DNA of 64,000 bases from the NCBI GenBank assembly GCA_965223905.1, contig CBDCXV010000010.1, forward strand, positions 256,001 to 320,000, in the 5' to 3' direction. This DNA is from Candidatus Latescibacterota bacterium (lineage in GTDB: Bacteria > Latescibacterota > UBA2968 > UBA8231). Shown piece by piece: positions 41,315 through 49,244 of this stretch (the stretch's first letter is position 1; the number at the start of each line of letters is the position of its first letter). The notes below the pieces were generated by a model. It was given only the letters and a program-made list of their open reading frames with translations, did no database searches and was not told where the DNA came from. Both the position numbers and the translations under genes were made by a program.

Positions 41315-41608
41315 CTTCCTCGGGACAGGACAGGAATATCGCTTATGCCCGGAACTCCGGGCAGCAACCCTCAGCGTGGGCTAGGCTCTTGGCTCCCGAC
41401 TACCGCCCAATTTCCGTGCTTTAGTTGAAGAACCAATCGAAGAGTACTCCTAAGAGGCCAACAACAAATGCGCTTAGTGCGATTACGCGAACGAAATACC
41501 AGACAGTATTCATGAAATCCCACAGCCTATCTTTCCAATGCTTCTTCAAAGGTGATCTCCCTCCTCCCGACCTAACTAAGATATCGTGACCCTATGCCGG
41601 GATTACCC

Positions 41609-42723
41609 ATGACTGCTGAAAACCGGATAGAACGGATGGAAGCGCGGATCCGGGAGGCAGGCGAGCTGGCTTCCGACTTCGCCCGCGATCCGCACCGGCC
41701 GGCCTGGCACTTCACGCCGCCGGCCGCCTGGATGAACGACATCAACGGCGCCCTCTACTGGAAGGGGCGCTACCACATCTTCTACCAGCTCAACCCGGAC
41801 GGGGCCTACTGGAACCGCATCCAGTGGGGGCACGCCTCGAGCGCCGACCTCGTGCACTGGGTCCACCATCCTGTGGCGCTGACGCCGGAAGCGGACGGAC
41901 CGGACCGCATCGGCTGCTTCAGCGGCGGCGCCCTGGTCGACAAGGAAGGAGTTCCGACGCTCATCTACTACGGCAACCCCGACGGCCTCTGCCTCGCCCG
42001 CAGCAGCGACGACCTGCTGCTCGAGTGGACGAAAGACCCGGGCAATCCCGTGATCCCCCAGCCGGAAGAAGGGAGCGCGGACTTCGGCCGCTACACCATC
42101 CACGACCCCTGCGGCTGGTTGGAGGGCGGCCTCTACTACGCCGCGGTCAACAGGCGTGACCCTCAAGGCCAGGGGGACGGGGCCTACCTGTTCAGATCGC
42201 GGGAACTGCGGAACTGGGAGTTCGCCGGCCTGTTCTACCAGTCCCGCCGGGAGTGGACGGAGGGAGGCGAGGACTGCGCCGTGCCCGACTTCTTCCCGCT
42301 CGGCAACCGGCACCTGCTGCTCTTCTGCAGCCACCTGCAGGGAACCCAGTACTACATCGGCGAGGTCCGGGAGGAACGGTTTTACCCGGACATCCACGGG
42401 CGCATGAGCTGGGAAGGGGGCCATCTCGGCGGGCCGCGGACCCTGCTCGACGCCCAAGGCCGGCGCGTCTTCTTCGACTGGATCCGCGAGCTGCGCGGCG
42501 TCGAGCGGGAGCGCGCTTCCGGATGGTCCGGCGTCATGACCGCCCCGCGGCTGTTGTCGCTGGATTCGGACGGTCACCTGCAGATCGAACCTGCACCGGA
42601 GCTCGAGGTATTGCGGCTGGATCAGGGCGGGCACGGGCCCGTTGACCTGGCCGCCGATTCCGAGGTGCCAGTGGAAGGGGTCGGCGGCGACTGCCTGGAG
42701 CTGGCAGTCGAGATCGATCCGCT
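41609..42723 (+). pseudogene. glycoside hydrolase family 32, N-terminal part (interrupted by IS)
   Basis: RPAWHF...WMNDING, HIFYQ, WGHASSADL.HW, FSGG, HDP, EDCAVPDFF; breaks at LAVEIDP. Confidence 0.92.
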
Positions 42724-42761
42724 GGTAGTCCCTCAGTTTGAAATATTCTATATTGAGAAGA

Positions 42762-42801
42762 GTGAGGTCCCCCCTGCAATACCATCCGGGGGGGACCTCA
42801 C
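42762..42801. repeat. 13-bp perfect inverted repeat in the IS left end
   Basis: GTGAGGTCCCCCC (42762-42774) / GGGGGGACCTCAC (42789-42801). Confidence 0.85.
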
Positions 42802-42804
42802 AGT

Positions 42805-42873
42805 GGGGCAGGCTTAGTGCGCCACCGGGCTTCCGATCCTGGCTAGGCGAGGGTTCGATTCCCTCCTGCTCCA
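42805..42873 (+). ncRNA. tRNA/tmRNA-like element lacking a D-arm
   Basis: Acceptor-like stem GGGGCAG/CTGCTCC+A; T-arm GAGGG-TTCGATT-CCCTC; central nested stems GCTTAG/CTAGGC and CCGGG/CCTGG. Confidence 0.6.
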
Positions 42874-42898
42874 CTTTCTCTTTTCCAAGAACGCCGTC

Positions 42899-43747
42899 AT
42901 GAACCGCCTGCTTCTAAAAAAGCGCGAGCTCATCCTGAAGTGCCTTGTGGACGGAATGTCCTTGCTGGCCACTTCGCGCATTGCCTGTGTCGCTGAAAAC
43001 ACCGTAGCGCGATTGCAGCTTCTCGCCGGCGAAGTCGCTTGCGACTTTCAGGACGAACATTTACGCAACCTCAAACTGGACAGCATCGAGCTCGACGAAA
43101 TCTGGTCGTTCGTGTACGTCAAACAGAAACGTCTCGAGCAGGCGAAGCGACCACCGGAAAACGCCGGCGACTCGTGGGTCTGGATAGCCATCGACCGAAA
43201 GACCAAGCTGGTCCCCTGCTGGTTAGTGGGCGGACGCTCACAGGAAGATGCCAATCTCTTCATCGAGGACCTCGCGCAACGGTTGTCAGGAGCTCCACAG
43301 CTGACCTCAGACGCCTACGCTCTCTACATCGAAGCTATCTATCGAGCCTTCGGTTCTCAAGTCGATTACGCCATGCTGAAGAAAGAGCACAAGCCCGACT
43401 CGCCTTCCCGCAAGACGCGCATCTCCGGCGATCCGGACGACGATCTCATTTCCACCTCGATTGCGGAACGGCAGAATCTTACCATGCGCATGTCGATGCG
43501 GCGCTTCACCCGGCGTACCAACGCTTTCTCGAAACGATTTCGCAATCACGCCTTTGCCGTCGCGCTCTACTACCTGAACTACAACTTCTGCCGTGTCCAT
43601 CAGACCATCGAAACCACTCCGGCCATCAAAGCCGGGGTGACGAATCGTCGTCTGTCTCTTCTGGAAGTGGCTCAGATGACGTTAGAAGCCGAGCCAAAAC
43701 CGAATCGTCCGAAACGGTATCGGAAACAGAATCGCGATTATCGATAG
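42899..43747 (+). CDS. IS1-family DDE transposase
   Basis: N-terminal HTH (LVDGMSLLATSRI), IELDEIWSFV, WVWIAID..TKLV, TSDAY..Y, STSIAERQNLTMR...RFTRRTNAFSK. Confidence 0.92.
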   Translation: MNRLLLKKRELILKCLVDGMSLLATSRIACVAENTVARLQLLAGEVACDFQDEHLRNLKLDSIELDEIWSFVYVKQKRLEQAKRPPENAGDSWVWIAIDRKTKLVPCWLVGGRSQEDANLFIEDLAQRLSGAPQLTSDAYALYIEAIYRAFGSQVDYAMLKKEHKPDSPSRKTRISGDPDDDLISTSIAERQNLTMRMSMRRFTRRTNAFSKRFRNHAFAVALYYLNYNFCRVHQTIETTPAIKAGVTNRRLSLLEVAQMTLEAEPKPNRPKRYRKQNRDYR

Positions 43748-43831
43748 CATCTCCGACAGCTTTGGCAAACTGGATCGGGTAATCTTGGCGACCGATGTTA
43801 TGCCGTTTTCCCAGCGAAATTCTTGCTTTCG

Positions 43832-44086
43832 TCATACTTCCTCCATTTGTTCGCGCAACTCCCTGCGAAGCTGAGGAATGGTGATGACCTTGGCGGCCAA
43901 ACTGGCGTTTTGTCCCTGCAAATCATCCAGCTGGGCATGCATCACCTGAAAACCTTCCCGCATTTCCTTTTCCAGCCGATCGAAGCGCTGGTCCATCTGC
44001 TCAAAACGCTTGAGCACCTTCTGATTGAACGCTTCCTGAGCATCGAAGCGCTTGAGCATCTCTTTCTGGAACTCTTCCTGGCTCAT
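43832..44086 (-). CDS. small coiled-coil protein (IS cargo, paralog 2)
   Basis: GAGGAATGCCGGA-ATG; MSQEEFQKEML...RFEQMDQRFD...LRRELRE. Confidence 0.8.
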   Translation of the reverse strand: MSQEEFQKEMLKRFDAQEAFNQKVLKRFEQMDQRFDRLEKEMREGFQVMHAQLDDLQGQNASLAAKVITIPQLRRELREQMEEV

Positions 44087-44114
44087 TCCGGCATTCCTCA
44101 CTTGATTCGAGGTT

Positions 44115-44381
44115 TCATGCTTCCTGGAGCTCCCGTTCGCGAAGTTCCCGGCGTAACGCCGGAACAGTCACTATAGTAGCAGCCAACCCGGCTAGCTGGG
44201 ACTGCATGTCATCCAGTTTTTCCTCGACGTGGTCGAAGCGCTTGTCCATTTGCTCGAAGCGCCGAAGAACTTCCTGATTGAACTCTTTCTGATCCTTCTG
44301 GAACTCCAACATCTGATTCTGGAACTCCAACATCTGATTCTGGAACTCCAACATCTGATTCTGGAACTTTTCCTGGTTCAT
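44115..44381 (-). CDS. small coiled-coil protein with heptad repeat (IS cargo, paralog 1)
   Basis: GAGGAATACCGGA-ATG overlapping the upstream stop (ATGA); MNQEK(FQNQMLE)x3...RFEQMDKRFD...LRRELRE. Confidence 0.8.
   Translation of the reverse strand: MNQEKFQNQMLEFQNQMLEFQNQMLEFQKDQKEFNQEVLRRFEQMDKRFDHVEEKLDDMQSQLAGLAATIVTVPALRRELRERELQEA
44296..44368. repeat. 21-bp tandem repeat, about 3.5 copies
   Basis: TTCTGGAACTCCAACATCTGA at 44296, 44317 and 44338, partial at 44359. Confidence 0.95.
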
Positions 44382-45634
44382 TCCGGTATTCCTCCACGTA
44401 AAGGATAGCGGCCAACACCGCAGCGCCAGCGAGGTTCGCCGGCCGTCACCTTGGCCGACCGAGGCGGAACCTGATAGGGTTCGGCTCGAGACACGTCCAC
44501 CTCGTATCCCAGATCCGCTAGCGCCTGAATCGTAATCAGGCTGAGAGGACGAATTTCGTCCGAGACGGCTCCGGACGTCATGATCTCGTTCCCCAGAACG
44601 TCTTCTCGCCAATGGGAGAAATAGTTTCCGTTCTCGACCGGCACTCCTTTTCTAGCCGCACGCGCCCTTTCGCGATACCATCCGCCTCCGGCTGACTCAA
44701 ACGCCGCTCTGCTCAAAATTCCCTTGAAGTAGGTGTCGGCATTCAGAGAACGATTGACCAAGCGCTCGTCCCACTCTTCTCCTCCCTGTAGCAGGATGTG
44801 ACCCAATTCATGGATCATCGTACGAAACACGTGAGAATCGGATTCAGAGCGAATAAACTCGGAATCCAGAACCACGAGGCCGTTGATGGCAACTCCGGAA
44901 GAAGATCGAAACCACAAAGTCTGAGCACTGCCGTTTACGCCGTACCCCAAATCAGCGGTAGTTGCATGAACGCGCACGTCGTCGATAAGATCATTTTCTA
45001 CAATCCTTCCAAACCACTGCTCGTGAGCACTGCCGGCCCACCAGGACATGTCGTCGGTATCCAATGTATGCCAGGCGAAATAATACCTGTCCTGGACATC
45101 GTTCGTAACGATCCGCTCCCACGTGACCGCGGCGCGCTCGAACAGCTCCCGATGGCGGTCGGTGAACTCGTTGCCTTCGGCGAACACGAGCTCGATGTCG
45201 AACAGTGAAGGTCTCAGGGGCAAACCGATCCCGTAGGGGTTGGACACACCGGAATCGGCCATCTCCGCCCAGACGTAGGCGCCCAGCAGTCCCAAGTCGA
45301 TCCATCCGGTGACTCCGTCCCGGTCGATGTCGAGCAAGTCCAGATCCAGAGGAACATGGTACCAAGGACTGGAGAGATGAATCCAGAGTCCCTCCACGTC
45401 GAAAATGTTCACCCACCCGTCCACGACCCCGTCTCCCAGAAGGCGTCCATCCACCGTCGCCTTGGGGCTGCCCCGCTCGCTAGACGGCCGCTGGATGGGC
45501 AACTCGATCCCCCGTTCAGCAAACCAGGTTCTCATTTCAGTGTACGCTTGCTCCCTGTCGGGCTCGTGTACCCGTGAGGGCGACTCACAGCCGGCCAGCA
45601 AGACCGACAACAGCAGGAGGATGGTGGCAATCAT
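44378..45634 (-). CDS. lipoprotein zinc metalloprotease, leishmanolysin/M8-like, with dockerin/EF-hand-like segment (IS cargo)
   Basis: LLAGC lipobox; DIDRDGVTGWIDL; HELGH...SHW.E....NEIMT...LSLITI.AL.DLGY. Confidence 0.82.
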   Translation of the reverse strand: MIATILLLLSVLLAGCESPSRVHEPDREQAYTEMRTWFAERGIELPIQRPSSERGSPKATVDGRLLGDGVVDGWVNIFDVEGLWIHLSSPWYHVPLDLDLLDIDRDGVTGWIDLGLLGAYVWAEMADSGVSNPYGIGLPLRPSLFDIELVFAEGNEFTDRHRELFERAAVTWERIVTNDVQDRYYFAWHTLDTDDMSWWAGSAHEQWFGRIVENDLIDDVRVHATTADLGYGVNGSAQTLWFRSSSGVAINGLVVLDSEFIRSESDSHVFRTMIHELGHILLQGGEEWDERLVNRSLNADTYFKGILSRAAFESAGGGWYRERARAARKGVPVENGNYFSHWREDVLGNEIMTSGAVSDEIRPLSLITIQALADLGYEVDVSRAEPYQVPPRSAKVTAGEPRWRCGVGRYPLRGGIPE

Positions 45635-45881
45635 CCTTGTCCCCTTCCCGTGTGTGCCCGAGAAGCCGGGCTGTGCCACCGTCCACAGCAGTCCGGGACG
45701 ATCCCGCTTATTTGCGAGACGCCAGGGTAATTACTCCCGGCGCCGGGATTTGATTCGCTGTTGTATTCAGCAGGAAACCCGGCGACACGCAGGGTCCGCT
45801 GTGAAACGGTGGCATCTGAGAACATACGCAAAATACCCACTTGACAATAGTTAGTGTCCTTTCTGTCTTTCTGCGCCTCTT

Positions 45882-46039
45882 GGACCGGTGACCCCCCCAC
45901 CACTGACAGGGCTACTCACCCTGGGCATTTCGAGAATCGACACCCCGTAGCACGAGGTGAGCAACGCAGAGGATGTCGATTTCTCTCCCTTGTGGGCCTT
46001 GTCAATCCCAGGTGTGCGGTGGTCACCGGCCCTCCTTTG
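45882..46039. ncRNA. candidate structured RNA, tandem unit 1
   Basis: Closing stem CCGGTGACC/GGTCACCGG with nested stems; homologous to unit 2 with compensatory changes; TTGACA at 45841 upstream on +. Confidence 0.5.
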
Positions 46040-46049
46040 ATGAACATTT

Positions 46050-46203
46050 GGGCCGGTGACCCAACCTGCCACCTGCCAAAGCTACTCGTCCGGGAAGAAT
46101 AGAATCGATACTCCGCAGCACGAGACGAGCAACGCAGAGCGTATCGACTTCCCTTCCTGTGAGCCTTGTCAATCCCAGGCAGGCGGTCACCGGCCCTCCT
46201 TTG
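46050..46203. ncRNA. candidate structured RNA, tandem unit 2
   Basis: Closing stem GGGCCGGTGACC/GGTCACCGGCCC; shares GAGCAACGCAGAG, GCCTTGTCAATCCCAGG and CCTCCTTTG blocks with unit 1. Confidence 0.5.
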
Positions 46204-46268
46204 CCGAAACCAGTGAGGAGATCGGTTTCGGCAAAAGACAGATCCAAATTTCAAACTGAGGCATTACC

Positions 46269-46688
46269 GATCCGCTGGAAGCGAAGGAGGTGGGACTGAA
46301 GGTGCTGCGCTCTCCTGGAGGCGAGGAGGAAACCGCAGTCTCCTGGGACGCCGAGGCAGCGGTGCTGCGGGTCGACCTCAGCCGGTCGTCCCTCGACCGG
46401 GAGATCCGCTACACCCGCTACCGAAGGCTTCAGCCGCACCTGACGGAGAGCGAGCAATACGTCACCGCCCAGGAGGGGCCGTTCGAGCTGCAACCAGGGG
46501 AGCTGCTGACCCTGCGAATCTTCCTCGACCGCTCGATCCTCGAGGTCTTCGCCAACCGCCGGCAATGCGTGACCCAGCGCATCTACCCGACGCGGCCCGA
46601 CAGCACCGGCGTCAGCCTGTTCGCGCGCGGGGGCGATGCCAGGGTGCGGTCGCTGCAGGCATGGACCCTGGCGCCGGCGCGGATGTGA
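46269..46688 (+). pseudogene. glycoside hydrolase family 32, C-terminal part
   Basis: [16 protein letters not shown]...[15 protein letters not shown]...TQRIYP, the GH32 C-terminal beta-sandwich. Confidence 0.92.
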
Positions 46689-46862
46689 TACCCTTTGGCG
46701 TGAGGCCATTTGTCTCGGGCGAAACACCCCTTCGCCAGCGCAGACCTGACTTTCCTTGCCGTAGGCAGGGCCACCTGGTTCGGCGGAGGCCCCGGCTCCA
46801 AGGGTCCAAGGGGCTCTCGGCCTGATCCCGCAGGACAACCAGATTACTTCAGGACAAACGGA

Positions 46863-49244
46863 TTACTTGAGGTAGAGCAGCCGCTGCGTCCGCACTCCGC
46901 CGGGGTACTGCAGCCGCGACAGGTAGACCCCAGCCGCCACCGGGGCCCCTCGCCGGTCGCGGGCGTCCCAGAAAACCCGGTGCCTGCCGGGAGCCTGGAC
47001 CTCGTCCACCAGCGTGCGCACCGGCTGCCCCAGGGTATTGTAGATCTCCAGCCGCACCGGACCGGGGGAAAGCAGGAACCAGGAGAGGACGGTCCGGCTG
47101 TTGAAGGGGTTGGGCGCGTTGGGGGTAAAGCGGCTGAGATCCGCGGGCTCCGCAGACGCCGTTTCTTTGGCTGCGTCCAGCAGCTCGACAGCCACAACCC
47201 GCGCGCTTTCCCCCGGGACCAGCTCCAGGATCTGGCGCCGGTTGCGGTTTAGGGGAATGCTACGCCAATGGCCCACTATCTCTCCATCCCAGCCGCCGGC
47301 ACGGACCTGGTAGAATCCGCTGACCCCGGCCCGGTCTCCGCTTGAAATAATCCGTTCGAATCGTCTGCTGTCGGTGGAAGGAGTCCAGTTTGTGACAGTA
47401 CTCCAGATGTACCGGGGGCGACGGCCGGAGATCATGCGGGAAAACTCCACAGCCTGTACTCGGTCGGAGATGGTGCCCTCGACTACCGTGCTGCTGATGT
47501 GCCTGTCCCGAACAATCACCGGCCTTCCAGACGCGCTTAACTGCTCGATCCGTTCCGAGGCGGGCGGGGGAAATTCAGAGGCTCCGTAACGGGTAATCGG
47601 AATGTCCCAATGGGTGACTCCAAACCGAAGGATCGTGCCTCCTTCCAGGCCGACGACGGGTATGATATCCGAATCATCGTAGCGTCTCTTTTCGCCTCCG
47701 CTACACTCGAAATTCAGGATGCCAATATTTGGACGATGGTTGACCTGACCCAGGTCCGGATTGAAAACGATAACCGGATCAACCGTCTTCGCGTCACTGA
47801 AAAAGAAGGTTGTGAGTCGCGTCAGGTAGGAACGTTCGGTTATCGCTTGTTTTGCCCTGGCATTCGGCTCCCGGATGTAGGTTACCCAGTCGTCGACAAA
47901 TCCCGAAAAATTGAACCATCCGTTTTCGTAATGATCCTCGAAATCATTTGGAAAGCTATAAAATTGGGACTCCGCATACGAGTAAAACCTTTCCTCGCGG
48001 CCGGTATAATTGCGTTTTATCTCTTCGAGCACGGATTCGGGAATGGGTATATGTTCCCTGAGCAATTGAAGAAATTGCAGATCCATCTTCGAACGGAGAT
48101 TGTCCCAGGAATGCCGGGGTATTATTCCACTATTCCAGAGGTCAAACATGAAAGAATCAAGGTTTTCCGGGTCGCGCAGCGACTCGATATCCACCTCCGG
48201 ATTCCCTAGTTCGGTTGAGGCTACTCCTTCCACCGCGTACTCGGTGCCGAATGCAGGTTGGCCCGCCTCTGCGATCGCGTCGGAAAAAACCTGGTAGTAG
48301 TTCCTGGGACGCTCAGGACGGAATATGCCATATGTGTCCATCCAATTCAGCCGCGCCTTGTTCAGGTGAACATGCAGGTAGTTGTCCGGTATCGCCCTGG
48401 TTTCCGCAGCGATCCAGGCGGTCAGTTTCAGTGTGGTAACTTGTGCACTCCCCGCCGACTTCAGGGGTATGGTGATCCTGTCCCCCGCAAAAGTGAAGGC
48501 CAACGGTTGAATCTGGTTCACCCCTTTCAGGTGACTCAGATATGCCGGTGGCGCCACTTCCACCGCCAGGATGGCATGGCCTTCATCGAGATAGGATTGC
48601 ACTACCTCCGCATCCATCGCTCCCGGCAGGTAACCTCGCTCCAGGGCCCAGTCGGCAATCTCCGCGTGCATCGATGAGGGTGATAGCTTGCGTCTCCCAT
48701 TCTACAGTGGACCCCAGGTCTATGGTCTCGCAGGTACGAATGCCACACGGCCACCTGTCAGCAATCGGGAAAAAAACCCATCAGCGGCGGAGAGACATGT
48801 TTGATTGCGCTCGTTTTCAAAGGTCGGCTCGGGAAAGTCCGGGACATATCCGAACCATTCCCCTCCGAACATTCTCTCCAAAAACCCGGGAGTAATCTCC
48901 TCTTCAGGATACCAGAATTCAGGAAACAAGTAGAAGCTGGGCAGTGTCCTTTCATTCATCCGCTGGAAAATGTCGTTATGACTGAGTTCAAGCTTCGAGC
49001 TGGATGGCACAGGTACTAGCCAGACAAAATCCCGCAATGGCCCGTCGAAATACCCTTTCAGATGAACCGTCGTGCTGTCCTCACCGACGATGAACAAGGC
49101 CTGGATCTCGCTCAGATCCACCGAAGGACCGCCAGCCCCCTTGAGCAAAACAGCAATGGAATGAGCCGGTGAAGCCGGCCAGATAGCAGAAGCGGCCAGG
49201 AGAACCGGCATGACAAGCGCGTTGAGTATCCGGGGCTGTTTCAT
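46863..49244 (-). CDS. secreted DUF2330-domain protein with FlgD-Ig-type C-terminal domain (frameshifted near 48670-48800)
   Basis: Signal peptide; YFDG..RDFVWLVPVPS, DWALERGY, IQPLAFTF...TIPLK, YLTRL; C-terminal NAPNPFNS...RLLYLK. Confidence 0.78.

Follow-up and report, generated by a model that had tools for sequence, protein, structure and literature searches.

A complete IS1-family transposon with passenger genes, among them a tRNA-like gene, in a split GH32 gene of a Latescibacterota bacterium

The window analyzed here is a stretch of 64,000 nucleotides from a Candidatus Latescibacterota bacterium (GenBank assembly GCA_965223905.1, contig CBDCXV010000010.1, positions 256,001 to 320,000 of the forward strand), and all coordinates below without a locus or contig name are those of the window. 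It contains, at 42724-46268, a complete transposon of 3545 bp that splits a gene for a GH32 family enzyme. Taken as a whole, the observations are very probably best explained by a complete, probably still mobile passenger-carrying insertion sequence (tIS) of a widespread clade of the IS1 family whose transposase is encoded by a single open reading frame (ORF). Its DDE transposase would recognise the conserved ends GGTA(G/A)T..CTCAGTTTGAAA and insert by an 8-bp staggered cut, and its passengers would be of three kinds, namely a tRNA-like gene, a four-gene operon on the opposite strand and tandem rod-like hairpin units. A widespread IS1 clade of cargo carriers gains a new member in this element, and the part of it worth following is the slot before the transposase gene, in which tRNA-shaped genes recur.

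An earlier note on this stretch, made from the sequence alone, had read the element as a larger IS1 lineage of its own that moves host-interaction genes. That interpretation is partly supported: it was right in kind, and overstated on the rarity of the element, on the generality of its layout and on the role of its cargo.

Boundaries and insertion site

The element is bounded by terminal inverted repeats (TIRs) of 21 nt that are 19/21 complementary (90%), begin with GGTAGTC... and GGTAATG..., and are flanked by a perfect 8-bp target-site duplication (Table 1). These features and the uninterrupted transposase, on which the earlier description of an intact element had been based, were all recovered by repeat search, shuffled controls and the ORF list. 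The span 42716-46276 holds both copies of the duplication, and the element proper therefore begins and ends just inside them. A degenerate 21-mer motif for the ends occurs only twice in the 64-kb window, against 0.00 occurrences expected from 100 shuffles.

The insertion was corroborated by an empty site in a genome of the same genus (G001), where both window flanks are adjacent and overlap by exactly 8 bp. This site carries one GATCCGCT within the open frame ...VEIDPLEAREVGLK..., in agreement with the claim that excision of the element restores the GH32 gene and that the insertion is recent. The GH32 orthologue in a second genome of the genus (G002) is also uninterrupted at the insertion site. 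Judged by these genome comparisons, the insertion into GH32 happened after the host genus diverged. The insertion itself is ordinary, an insertion sequence knocking out one of many GH32 genes. In the G002 orthologue (L031, G002:C1:2162395-2166513), similarity to the window ends about 70 nt past the insertion site and the open frame measures just 474 aa; both features suggest that sequence was deleted or rearranged at this point.

Assembled Logan contigs of sequencing run X1 cover 42500-43510 and 44339-46297 and bridge both junctions with 0 differences, although this support is not independent of the assembly, as X1 may be the source sample. An assembly artefact at the junctions, or an insertion that is not real in the organism, would fit an element that is single-copy and differs in G+C from its flanks, but the bridging contigs, the perfect duplication and the exact empty site in a relative make it extremely improbable. 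Of the two traces of mobility that had been proposed as a check, an empty site and a circular junction, only the first was found. Contigs that skip exactly the element (joint 42714->46268) were present in 4/4 runs (X1, X3, X5 and X7), and no circle (back-joining) junction was seen among the Logan contigs of these runs. Because the skipping contigs differ from the window flanks, they represent the empty site in related populations and not excision.

The G+C content is 0.51-0.64 within the element and 0.66-0.72 outside it, and the overall value of 55% against 68-70% for the host suggests a foreign source. The host's own genome holds one full copy, one internally deleted remnant and one paralogue of 47% identity.

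Table 1. Coordinates, strand and basis of the features of the element and of the interrupted gene.
Feature	Position	Strand	Basis
GH32 gene, N-terminal part, interrupted	41594..42723	+	Glyco_hydro_32N 193.4 bits
Left 8-bp target-site duplication, GATCCGCT	42716..42723	.	Sequence and repeat search; single copy in G001 empty site
Left TIR, GGTAGTCCCTCAGTTTGAAAT	42724..42744	+	Repeat search; end motif also bounds relatives
13-bp perfect G+C-rich hairpin (stem 42762-42774 / 42789-42801)	42762..42801	+	Repeat search; ends 3 nt before tRNA-like gene
tRNA-like gene, 69 nt	42805..42873	+	Fold, covariance model R1
IS1-type DDE transposase, single ORF, 282 aa, uninterrupted	42899..43747	+	ORF list, Pfam
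Small ORF, 69 aa, last operon gene	43626..43835	-	Start overlaps preceding stop (ATGA)
Coiled-coil protein 1, 84 aa from ATG 44086	43832..44101	-	Paralogue of coiled-coil protein 2
Coiled-coil protein 2, 88 aa, three 21-nt tandem repeats	44115..44381	-	Start overlaps protease stop (ATGA)
Leishmanolysin-like (M8) zinc metalloprotease, 418 aa from ATG 45634	44378..45634	-	LLAGC, HELGH, homologues
Structured unit A, rod-like fold, closing stem GGGCCGGTGACC/GGTCACCGGTCC	45878..46036	-	Repeat search, folding
Structured unit B, pair-preserving changes relative to A	46046..46200	-	Repeat search, folding
Sub-terminal hairpin, 15-nt arms, 93% complementary	46197..46238	.	Repeat search
Right TIR, reads GGTAATGCCTCAGTTTGAAAT on - strand	46248..46268	-	Repeat search
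Right 8-bp target-site duplication, GATCCGCT	46269..46276	.	Sequence and repeat search; perfect match to left copy
GH32 gene, C-terminal part, frame continuing from 42723	46277..46688	+	Glyco_hydro_32C 97.1 bits (frame 46278-46685, running on across the duplication)

Transposase and family assignment

The transposase matched the Pfam family DDE_Tnp_IS1 (PF03400) with 30.8 bits, above the cut-off of 24.1. TIRs of the IS1 family are about 20-25 bp long and start with GGT. With 21-nt TIRs that start with GGT, an 8-bp duplication and this Pfam match, the element falls within the IS1 family and, as had been proposed from the sequence, carries passenger genes: one TIR pair and one duplication enclose genes that are not needed for transposition.

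Its homologues are numerous. All 8000 of the 8000 candidates scored were homologous at E<=0.001, the best of them other than the transposase itself being 54% identical. Many are named IS1 family transposase by their sources, and PF03400 is precomputed for nearly all of those listed. In a tblastn search of plasmids at E<=1e-5, relatives were found in 10 records only, none of them enterobacterial, and no classical IS1 copy was among the matches.

Two results weigh against a close tie to classical IS1. The best stretch of the PF03400 match covers residues 186-223 of the transposase only, and the NCBIfam equivalog for IS1, NF033558 (transpos_IS1), was matched with 54.2 bits against a cut-off of 100. 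Thus, the kinship of this transposase to that of classical IS1 is remote.

Architecture of the clade

The same end motif, GGTAGTG.CTCAGTTTGAAA, is common to the relatives. A TIR pair with identical 8-bp flanks was present in 8/10 genome relatives, with sizes of 1552-3372 bp, and in 40/80 viral-contig loci, with sizes of 1323-4254 bp. A metagenome scan with the single protein yielded one locus, a duplicate of L011, and a scan of genome contigs yielded three. Since the relatives bounded by duplications measure 1.3-4.3 kb, the carriage of cargo is the norm of the clade. Nearly all relatives with the same ends and 8-bp duplications hold passenger DNA, and the clade is widespread and already annotated as IS1 family. 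The idea of an unusual, larger IS1 lineage did not survive these counts of homologues and sizes.

The arrangement within the element is a different matter. In most relatives, some 20 nt separate the stop of the transposase gene from one terminus, and the cargo is located on the upstream side of the gene. The window element and the remnant are arranged otherwise, with the transposase gene by the left end and a small ORF converging on it, so that the layout of the window element, which had been put forward as typical of its lineage, is not. The closest relative is the remnant itself (L008, own genome, C10:1287164-1287560), whose pieces are 65-84% identical to the element. In it, the left end is followed by 20 nt and then by the transposase ATG, without a hairpin or a tRNA-like gene; the transposase gene has suffered an internal deletion and the converging small ORF is retained.

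Several further observations concern the relatives. Downstream of the 47% transposase paralogue of the own genome (C11:743592-744455; L007 / L042), small ORFs extend over about 1 kb, with two long G+C-rich hairpins and a recognisable right end; no matching inverted repeat for the left end was found within 6 kb. A small conserved ORF of about 75-95 aa lies directly inside one end, opposite the transposase end, in at least 15/69 loci by a strict pattern (...KRPRDPNQLAK.IVD.ATGE...GGLKGGKARA..L...R.EIA.KAA..RW). Examples are L121:4016-4261, L143:3803-4036, L075:2991-3254 and L088:4574 onward. It has no Pfam family at E<=0.1, and it may encode an accessory or regulatory protein of the transposon.

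Judged by translation, a DNA methyltransferase-like ORF with a DPPF motif is carried as cargo at L010:4738-5961, and the L045 element carries a small toxin-like ORF followed by a helix-turn-helix-like ORF, resembling a toxin-antitoxin pair. Loci L291, L298 and L301 share a conserved palindrome, GACACACTG.TGTCAC, followed by repeated CTCAAGCAT, about 60 nt before the transposase start, and in L088 a palindrome, CTTGAGCGCTCAAG, adjoins the left end. These palindromes look like operators.

The tRNA-like gene of the element

The hairpin and tRNA-like RNA that the earlier note had placed upstream of the transposase gene were both confirmed, the former as a perfect 13-bp stem and the latter by a covariance model of relatives, R1, which scored the window copy at 31.5 bits (E ~1e-5 in 849 kb). 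The tRNA-like fold has a 7-bp acceptor stem with the alanine identity elements G3:U70 and discriminator A73, a canonical T arm and no D stem, and a 5-bp stem carries an anticodon-like loop of 8 nt, CUUCCGAU. In the window copy, the acceptor stem and the T arm are free of mismatches. This is not a canonical tRNA: the D arm is missing, the loop is 8 nt long and ARAGORN did not call it, reporting 0 tRNA and 0 tmRNA (transfer-messenger RNA) in the window. The Rfam matches at 42804-42873 stayed below their gathering scores, with 28.8 bits for mascRNA and 25.7 bits for tRNA-Sec, the latter being the best of the tRNA clan.

Model R1 was built from L121 and L139 only, both of which hold D-stem-less RNAs. 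In addition to the window copy, it matched L069 (36.1 bits), L298 (31.6), L051 (27.5) and L291 (21.6). In the own genome the window copy was the top match, followed by the host tmRNA and then by two tRNA-Ala genes. Window positions 42849-42875 are 96% identical to L121. Across eight aligned sequences, 96.9% of the cells pair, 11/17 pairs change on both sides and G3:U70 is kept in 7/8. The observed pairing was reached by 0/500 shuffles, and slid controls paired in at most 64% of cells. The weight of these figures is reduced by the alignment itself, which was fitted to the model and some of whose sequences (L051, L306) look like ordinary tRNAs.

With its R1 match, G3:U70, A73 and covariation, the window copy belongs to the D-stem-less Ala-type class that R1 defines. 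On this comparative evidence the tRNA-like gene is real, the relatives in other elements having settled the matter.

tRNA genes before the transposase gene in relatives

In two loci of the same phylum, L048 and L051, a tRNA called by ARAGORN immediately precedes the transposase gene on its strand; both tRNAs have the anticodon TAT, and they scored 64.8 and 70.9 bits on the Rfam tRNA model. ARAGORN calls gave the same arrangement in 6/80 viral-contig loci, with the anticodons AGT, TTA, GTA, GCT, CGG and, in one locus, ATA+TCC. Across all of these loci, the spacing to the transposase gene is 68-287 nt.

With a custom scanner, a candidate had to lie on the same strand within 400 nt upstream and to combine a TTYRANN loop with a T stem of 5 bp and an acceptor stem of 7 bp, both without mismatches. 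The scanner selected 9/101 non-redundant loci with 12 hits, where the remaining sequence of these loci would predict 0.37; the hit in one of the loci, L069, probably mirrors a gene on the opposite strand. A separate sample from another phylum gave tRNA-shaped genes in 3/28 loci, 89-126 nt upstream. In one of these, L301, the tRNA lies inside a 2464-bp element with a perfect duplication, and tRNAs lie inside duplication-bounded elements in L088, L121 and L051 as well. Hairpins comparable to that of the window precede the tRNA in L051, L088 and L121, and arrays of two or three irregular tRNA genes are present in L121 and L139. Altogether, about 10% of the elements have a tRNA-shaped gene in this position. 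In the literature searches made, we found no description of this recurrent slot or of an IS1-family tIS with a tRNA or tRNA-like gene.

On a transposase tree with 102 rows, of which 10 bear a tRNA, the distribution of the tRNAs requires 9 state changes, 7 of them forced by well-supported branches. Shuffled labels require 9.6 changes on average, so the observed number is no better than chance, and this scatter indicates that the tRNA module was gained or lost many times.

Three considerations count against a firm bond between these RNAs and the transposon. The nominal Poisson probability of the scanner result, 9e-15, is overstated, as the loci are related. The module must be dispensable for transposition, given that about 90% of the elements, including the nearest relative, are without one. 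Finally, among 18 irregular tRNA-like RNAs of viral contigs that share the acceptor and T arm, just one is found beside an IS1-type transposase.

Two side observations belong here. The viral-contig RNAs, of 75-85 nt, combine a tmRNA-like 5' end (with a D-loop analogue of the GGGGC.G....GG..T.GAC type), a short capped stem and the T arm and acceptor of tRNA-Ala or tmRNA. They have no tag reading frame and look like mini-tmRNAs that consist of the tRNA-like domain only; examples are L174:2373-2451, L237:2705-2783, L188:2306-2381, L206:2690-2765 and L226:7265-7343(-). ARAGORN made no call on the five mini-RNA loci L174, L187, L226, L237 and L276. Secondly, a tRNA-Sec-like sequence at L019:1249-1334(-), whose score of 35.8 bits stays under the gathering score, stands in divergent orientation before a transposase gene (~1495 onward). 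That gene has one in-frame TGA, in place of a conserved Trp codon (GDV*TW). In our own parse the tRNA-Sec-like sequence does not have the anticodon UCA, and a nonsense mutation is the simpler reading.

Possible roles of the tRNA-like gene

The role we favor, tentatively and on the basis of gene order and predicted folds, is that the tRNA-like RNA may process or insulate the transposase mRNA. The interrupted GH32 gene has the same orientation as the transposase gene and reads into the element. A strong hairpin stands immediately before the tRNA-like RNA, as it does in L051, L088 and L121. The transposase gene starts just 25 nt past the tRNA-like gene, with no promoter-like site between the two, from which co-transcription is inferred. 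In the proposed mechanism, the hairpin and the tRNA-like fold would be transcribed together with the transposase gene, and RNase P and the 3' processing enzymes would cut out the tRNA-like RNA. Its excision would split the transposase mRNA from read-through of the same-strand GH32 gene. The same cuts would free a small, stable RNA, a possible substrate for charging by alanyl-tRNA synthetase.

This proposal has its own difficulties. The region 42600-46400 contains 0 sigma-70-like promoters, where 1.4 would be expected by chance. In L088, L051 and L121, a -35/-10 pair resembling a promoter separates the tRNA from the transposase gene, so that their tRNAs need not be co-transcribed with it, and insulation is weakened as a general rule.

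Somewhat less likely, in our view, is that the irregular tRNAs and tRNA-like RNAs are independent passengers, whose targets would be the host's translation, or toxins and defences directed at tRNAs, and not the transposase. They might do so by missense or nonsense suppression, as decoys or by tmRNA mimicry. This would suit their diverse anticodons, several of them non-canonical (UAU, UUA, AUA, AGU, AGG, UCA), and their bodies, which are of the Ala type or the long-variable-arm type. The synthetases for tRNAs of these two types are not known to read the anticodon. The arrays in L121 and L139 fit as well, as do the similar RNAs that occur in viral contigs without the transposase (17/18). Passages of Mukai et al. 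(2017, NAR 45:2776, PMC5389517) report that allo-tRNAs with G3:U70 insert alanine in E. coli, and that allo-tRNA(UAU) species and polycistrons of irregular tRNAs lie near toxin-antitoxin or transposon-related genes. An independent passenger, however, leaves unexplained the constant location at the transposase-proximal edge of the cargo. The fold of the window copy, with no D stem and an 8-nt loop, also makes ribosomal decoding by it doubtful.

We consider it unlikely that the tRNA-like sequence is a decaying, captured tRNA-Ala gene without function. Its acceptor stem (GGGGCAG/CTGCTCC) and T loop are as in the host tRNA-Ala(CGC), so that the gene looks like this tRNA with a deleted D arm and an altered anticodon loop. 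Its rejection by ARAGORN, its Rfam scores below gathering and the nearest relative without such a gene are also what a relic would leave. Decay is, however, at odds with the perfect pairing of acceptor and T arm in the window and with the position before the transposase gene, which recurs in three independent samples. Moreover, the D-stem-less relatives in L121, L139, L298, L291 and L069 keep three helices through two-sided changes, which points to selection on the fold.

The suggestion that the tRNA or tRNA-like gene decodes special codons of the transposase (rare AUA, in-frame stops or a quadruplet), as an analogue of the programmed frameshift of IS1, draws on the place of these genes directly upstream of the transposase gene, on the anticodons UAU, UUA and UCA and on the 8-nt loop of the window copy, but it was rejected on the ORFs of nine elements and is most improbable. 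All 9/9 transposase ORFs examined are intact and have no in-frame stop. L051, with the anticodon UAU, has 0 ATA among 14 Ile codons; in L088, with UUA, TAA is absent and the stop codon is TGA; and the window transposase is one uninterrupted ORF with 1 ATA. The loci that do contain TGA are L069, a frameshifted pseudogene, and L019, where the TGA stands at the Trp codon and no UCA anticodon is present.

A broader proposal builds on the processing or insulation reading and on that of independent passengers alike, and we regard it as speculative and rather unlikely to hold in full. At the edge of the cargo next to the transposase gene, the IS1 clade would have a preferred slot for irregular tRNAs and D-stem-less Ala-type RNAs, and its elements would carry the orphan irregular tRNAs known from metagenomes. 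These RNAs would set transposase expression through tRNA-type processing of the transcript, or act on host translation or ribosome rescue, as mobile suppressors, decoys or tmRNA mimics, and the window element would be one working example.

Cargo operon

The four ORFs on the - strand form an operon, with a stop/start overlap (ATGA) at two junctions. The leading product, the predicted protease, has a lipoprotein-type signal sequence (LLAGC) and an HELGH motif, and it scored 20.8 bits for Peptidase_M8, just below the cut-off of 21. It has 63 homologues, the best of 48% identity and many of them with PF01457. The proposal that the cargo serves host interaction has only the M8-type domain behind it, and as this domain occurs in 58/168 genomes of the phylum, we do not maintain the claim.

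The two coiled-coil proteins are 48-52% identical to each other, and a single homologue of theirs lies within the L044 element, in another genome of the genus. A 21-nt sequence encoding MLEFQNQ heptads is repeated in tandem three to four times, exactly or nearly so, within coiled-coil gene 2 (44289-44369), which points to recent expansion. The 69-aa ORF is antisense to the 3' end of the transposase gene and shows 50% identity over 28 aa to the ORF in the same position in the remnant. Pfam found nothing on the small ORFs at E<=0.1.

Tandem 165-nt units

Near the right end, two units of about 165 nt each are 87% identical, and each forms a long rod closed by a 12-bp stem (12-bp perfect inverted termini). 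The consensus fold is more stable on the - strand (-54.6 kcal/mol) than on the + strand (-37.7 kcal/mol). Of its 47 pairs, 3 are changed on both sides between the units, 7 on one side and 0 are broken. Single units also fold 10-15 kcal/mol better on the - strand, with z scores of -3.3 and -5.3. Thus, of the tandem non-coding RNAs proposed for this position, the structured repeats stand and their nature as RNA is putative, while their place in the general layout of the lineage does not stand, as no copy was found in the other elements, the own genome or 168 genomes of the phylum.

The searches for relatives were of several kinds. BLAST against the 168 genomes gave only chance matches of 23-30 nt, exact 17-mers gave 0 matches in the viral contigs, and R2, a covariance model of the units, found nothing in 99 other loci or in the rest of the own genome. 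No relative was present beside the protease homologues and in further loci (20 loci, with filters off). In Rfam (E<=1, 42000-47000) only one weak match at chance level was obtained for the units, to CcsR1 with 18.9 bits. From this lack of relatives, the units are taken to be a private tandem duplication of a structured segment. A protein-coding origin was considered and rejected: the start context is shared, and the frames diverge after about 13 codons through an indel.

A plausible account of the units, though short of a probable one, is that they are DNA-level palindromic repeats (MITE- or ERIC-like) from a donor genome, tandemly duplicated, and not genes for non-coding RNAs. Both strands fold far better than shuffles (z from -2.4 to -5.3), and the perfect inverted termini, together with the absence of an Rfam family, of a promoter-like site and of relatives beside the protease homologues, are in line with it. 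On the other hand, no further copy was found in the own genome, 119 other loci and the 168 phylum genomes, although the donor may lie outside this set. The duplication also extends about 15 nt beyond the hairpin, which points to one tandem duplication rather than two insertions, and the G-U pairs favor the - strand. It is also possible, given the strand preference of the predicted folds, that the units form part of a - strand leader RNA, or a small RNA, of the protease operon, a suggestion we offer with reserve.

Significance

The observations point to a large and poorly described clade made up mostly of cargo carriers of 1.3-4.3 kb with very conserved ends, which matters for the annotation of mobile DNA in uncultured bacteria. 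In addition, irregular tRNA genes at a fixed position give a genomic home to the irregular tRNAs from metagenomes that have been suspected of a link to transposons. Two ideas are opened by this, namely that tRNA-type processing may act as an insulator of transposase expression, or that the elements may spread mobile, alanine-accepting tRNA mimics.

Comparison with known systems

Classical IS1 begins with GGTGATG, is about 0.77 kb long (0.7-1.2 kb for elements of the classical type) and makes duplications of 8-9 bp. It has two ORFs, insA and insB', joined by a programmed -1 frameshift, and an N-terminal zinc finger. The window element resembles it in its PF03400 transposase, its ends (GGTA(A/G)T.) and its 8-bp duplication. 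It differs in its single ORF of 282 aa, in the lack of CxxC zinc-finger pairs in the first 60 residues and in its length of 3.5 kb. ISfinder has an IS1 subgroup ISMhu11 of 0.9 to about 4.6 kb, a name that a full-text literature search found in no paper. Passenger-carrying tIS are known in IS1595. The element is like such tIS in that an IS-type transposase gene, TIRs and a duplication enclose genes unrelated to transposition, and a passage of PMC7986276 describes passenger-carrying members (tIS) among IS families.

With tmRNA and mascRNA the comparison concerns the tRNA-like domain. The window RNA shares with them an acceptor stem of the alanine type (G3:U70, A73), a T arm of canonical form and a reduction of the D region, and the L069 copy scored 32.9 bits on the Rfam tmRNA model, below the gathering threshold. 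Unlike tmRNA, the window RNA is a single piece of 69 nt without a tag reading frame or pseudoknots, and the real tmRNA of the host is encoded elsewhere in its genome.

The irregular tRNAs described in passages of Mukai et al. (PMC5389517) have anticodons that misfit their identity, UAU being the commonest, and include G3:U70 variants, polycistrons and a suspected link to transposable elements; those passages name no IS family. Allo-tRNAs are defined there by acceptor/T stems of 8/4 or 9/3, from which the window RNA departs with 7/5, no D stem and an 8-nt loop. The genes of the present clade are like those irregular tRNAs in their tRNA shape, their misfit anticodons, their G3:U70 pair and their occurrence in polycistrons.

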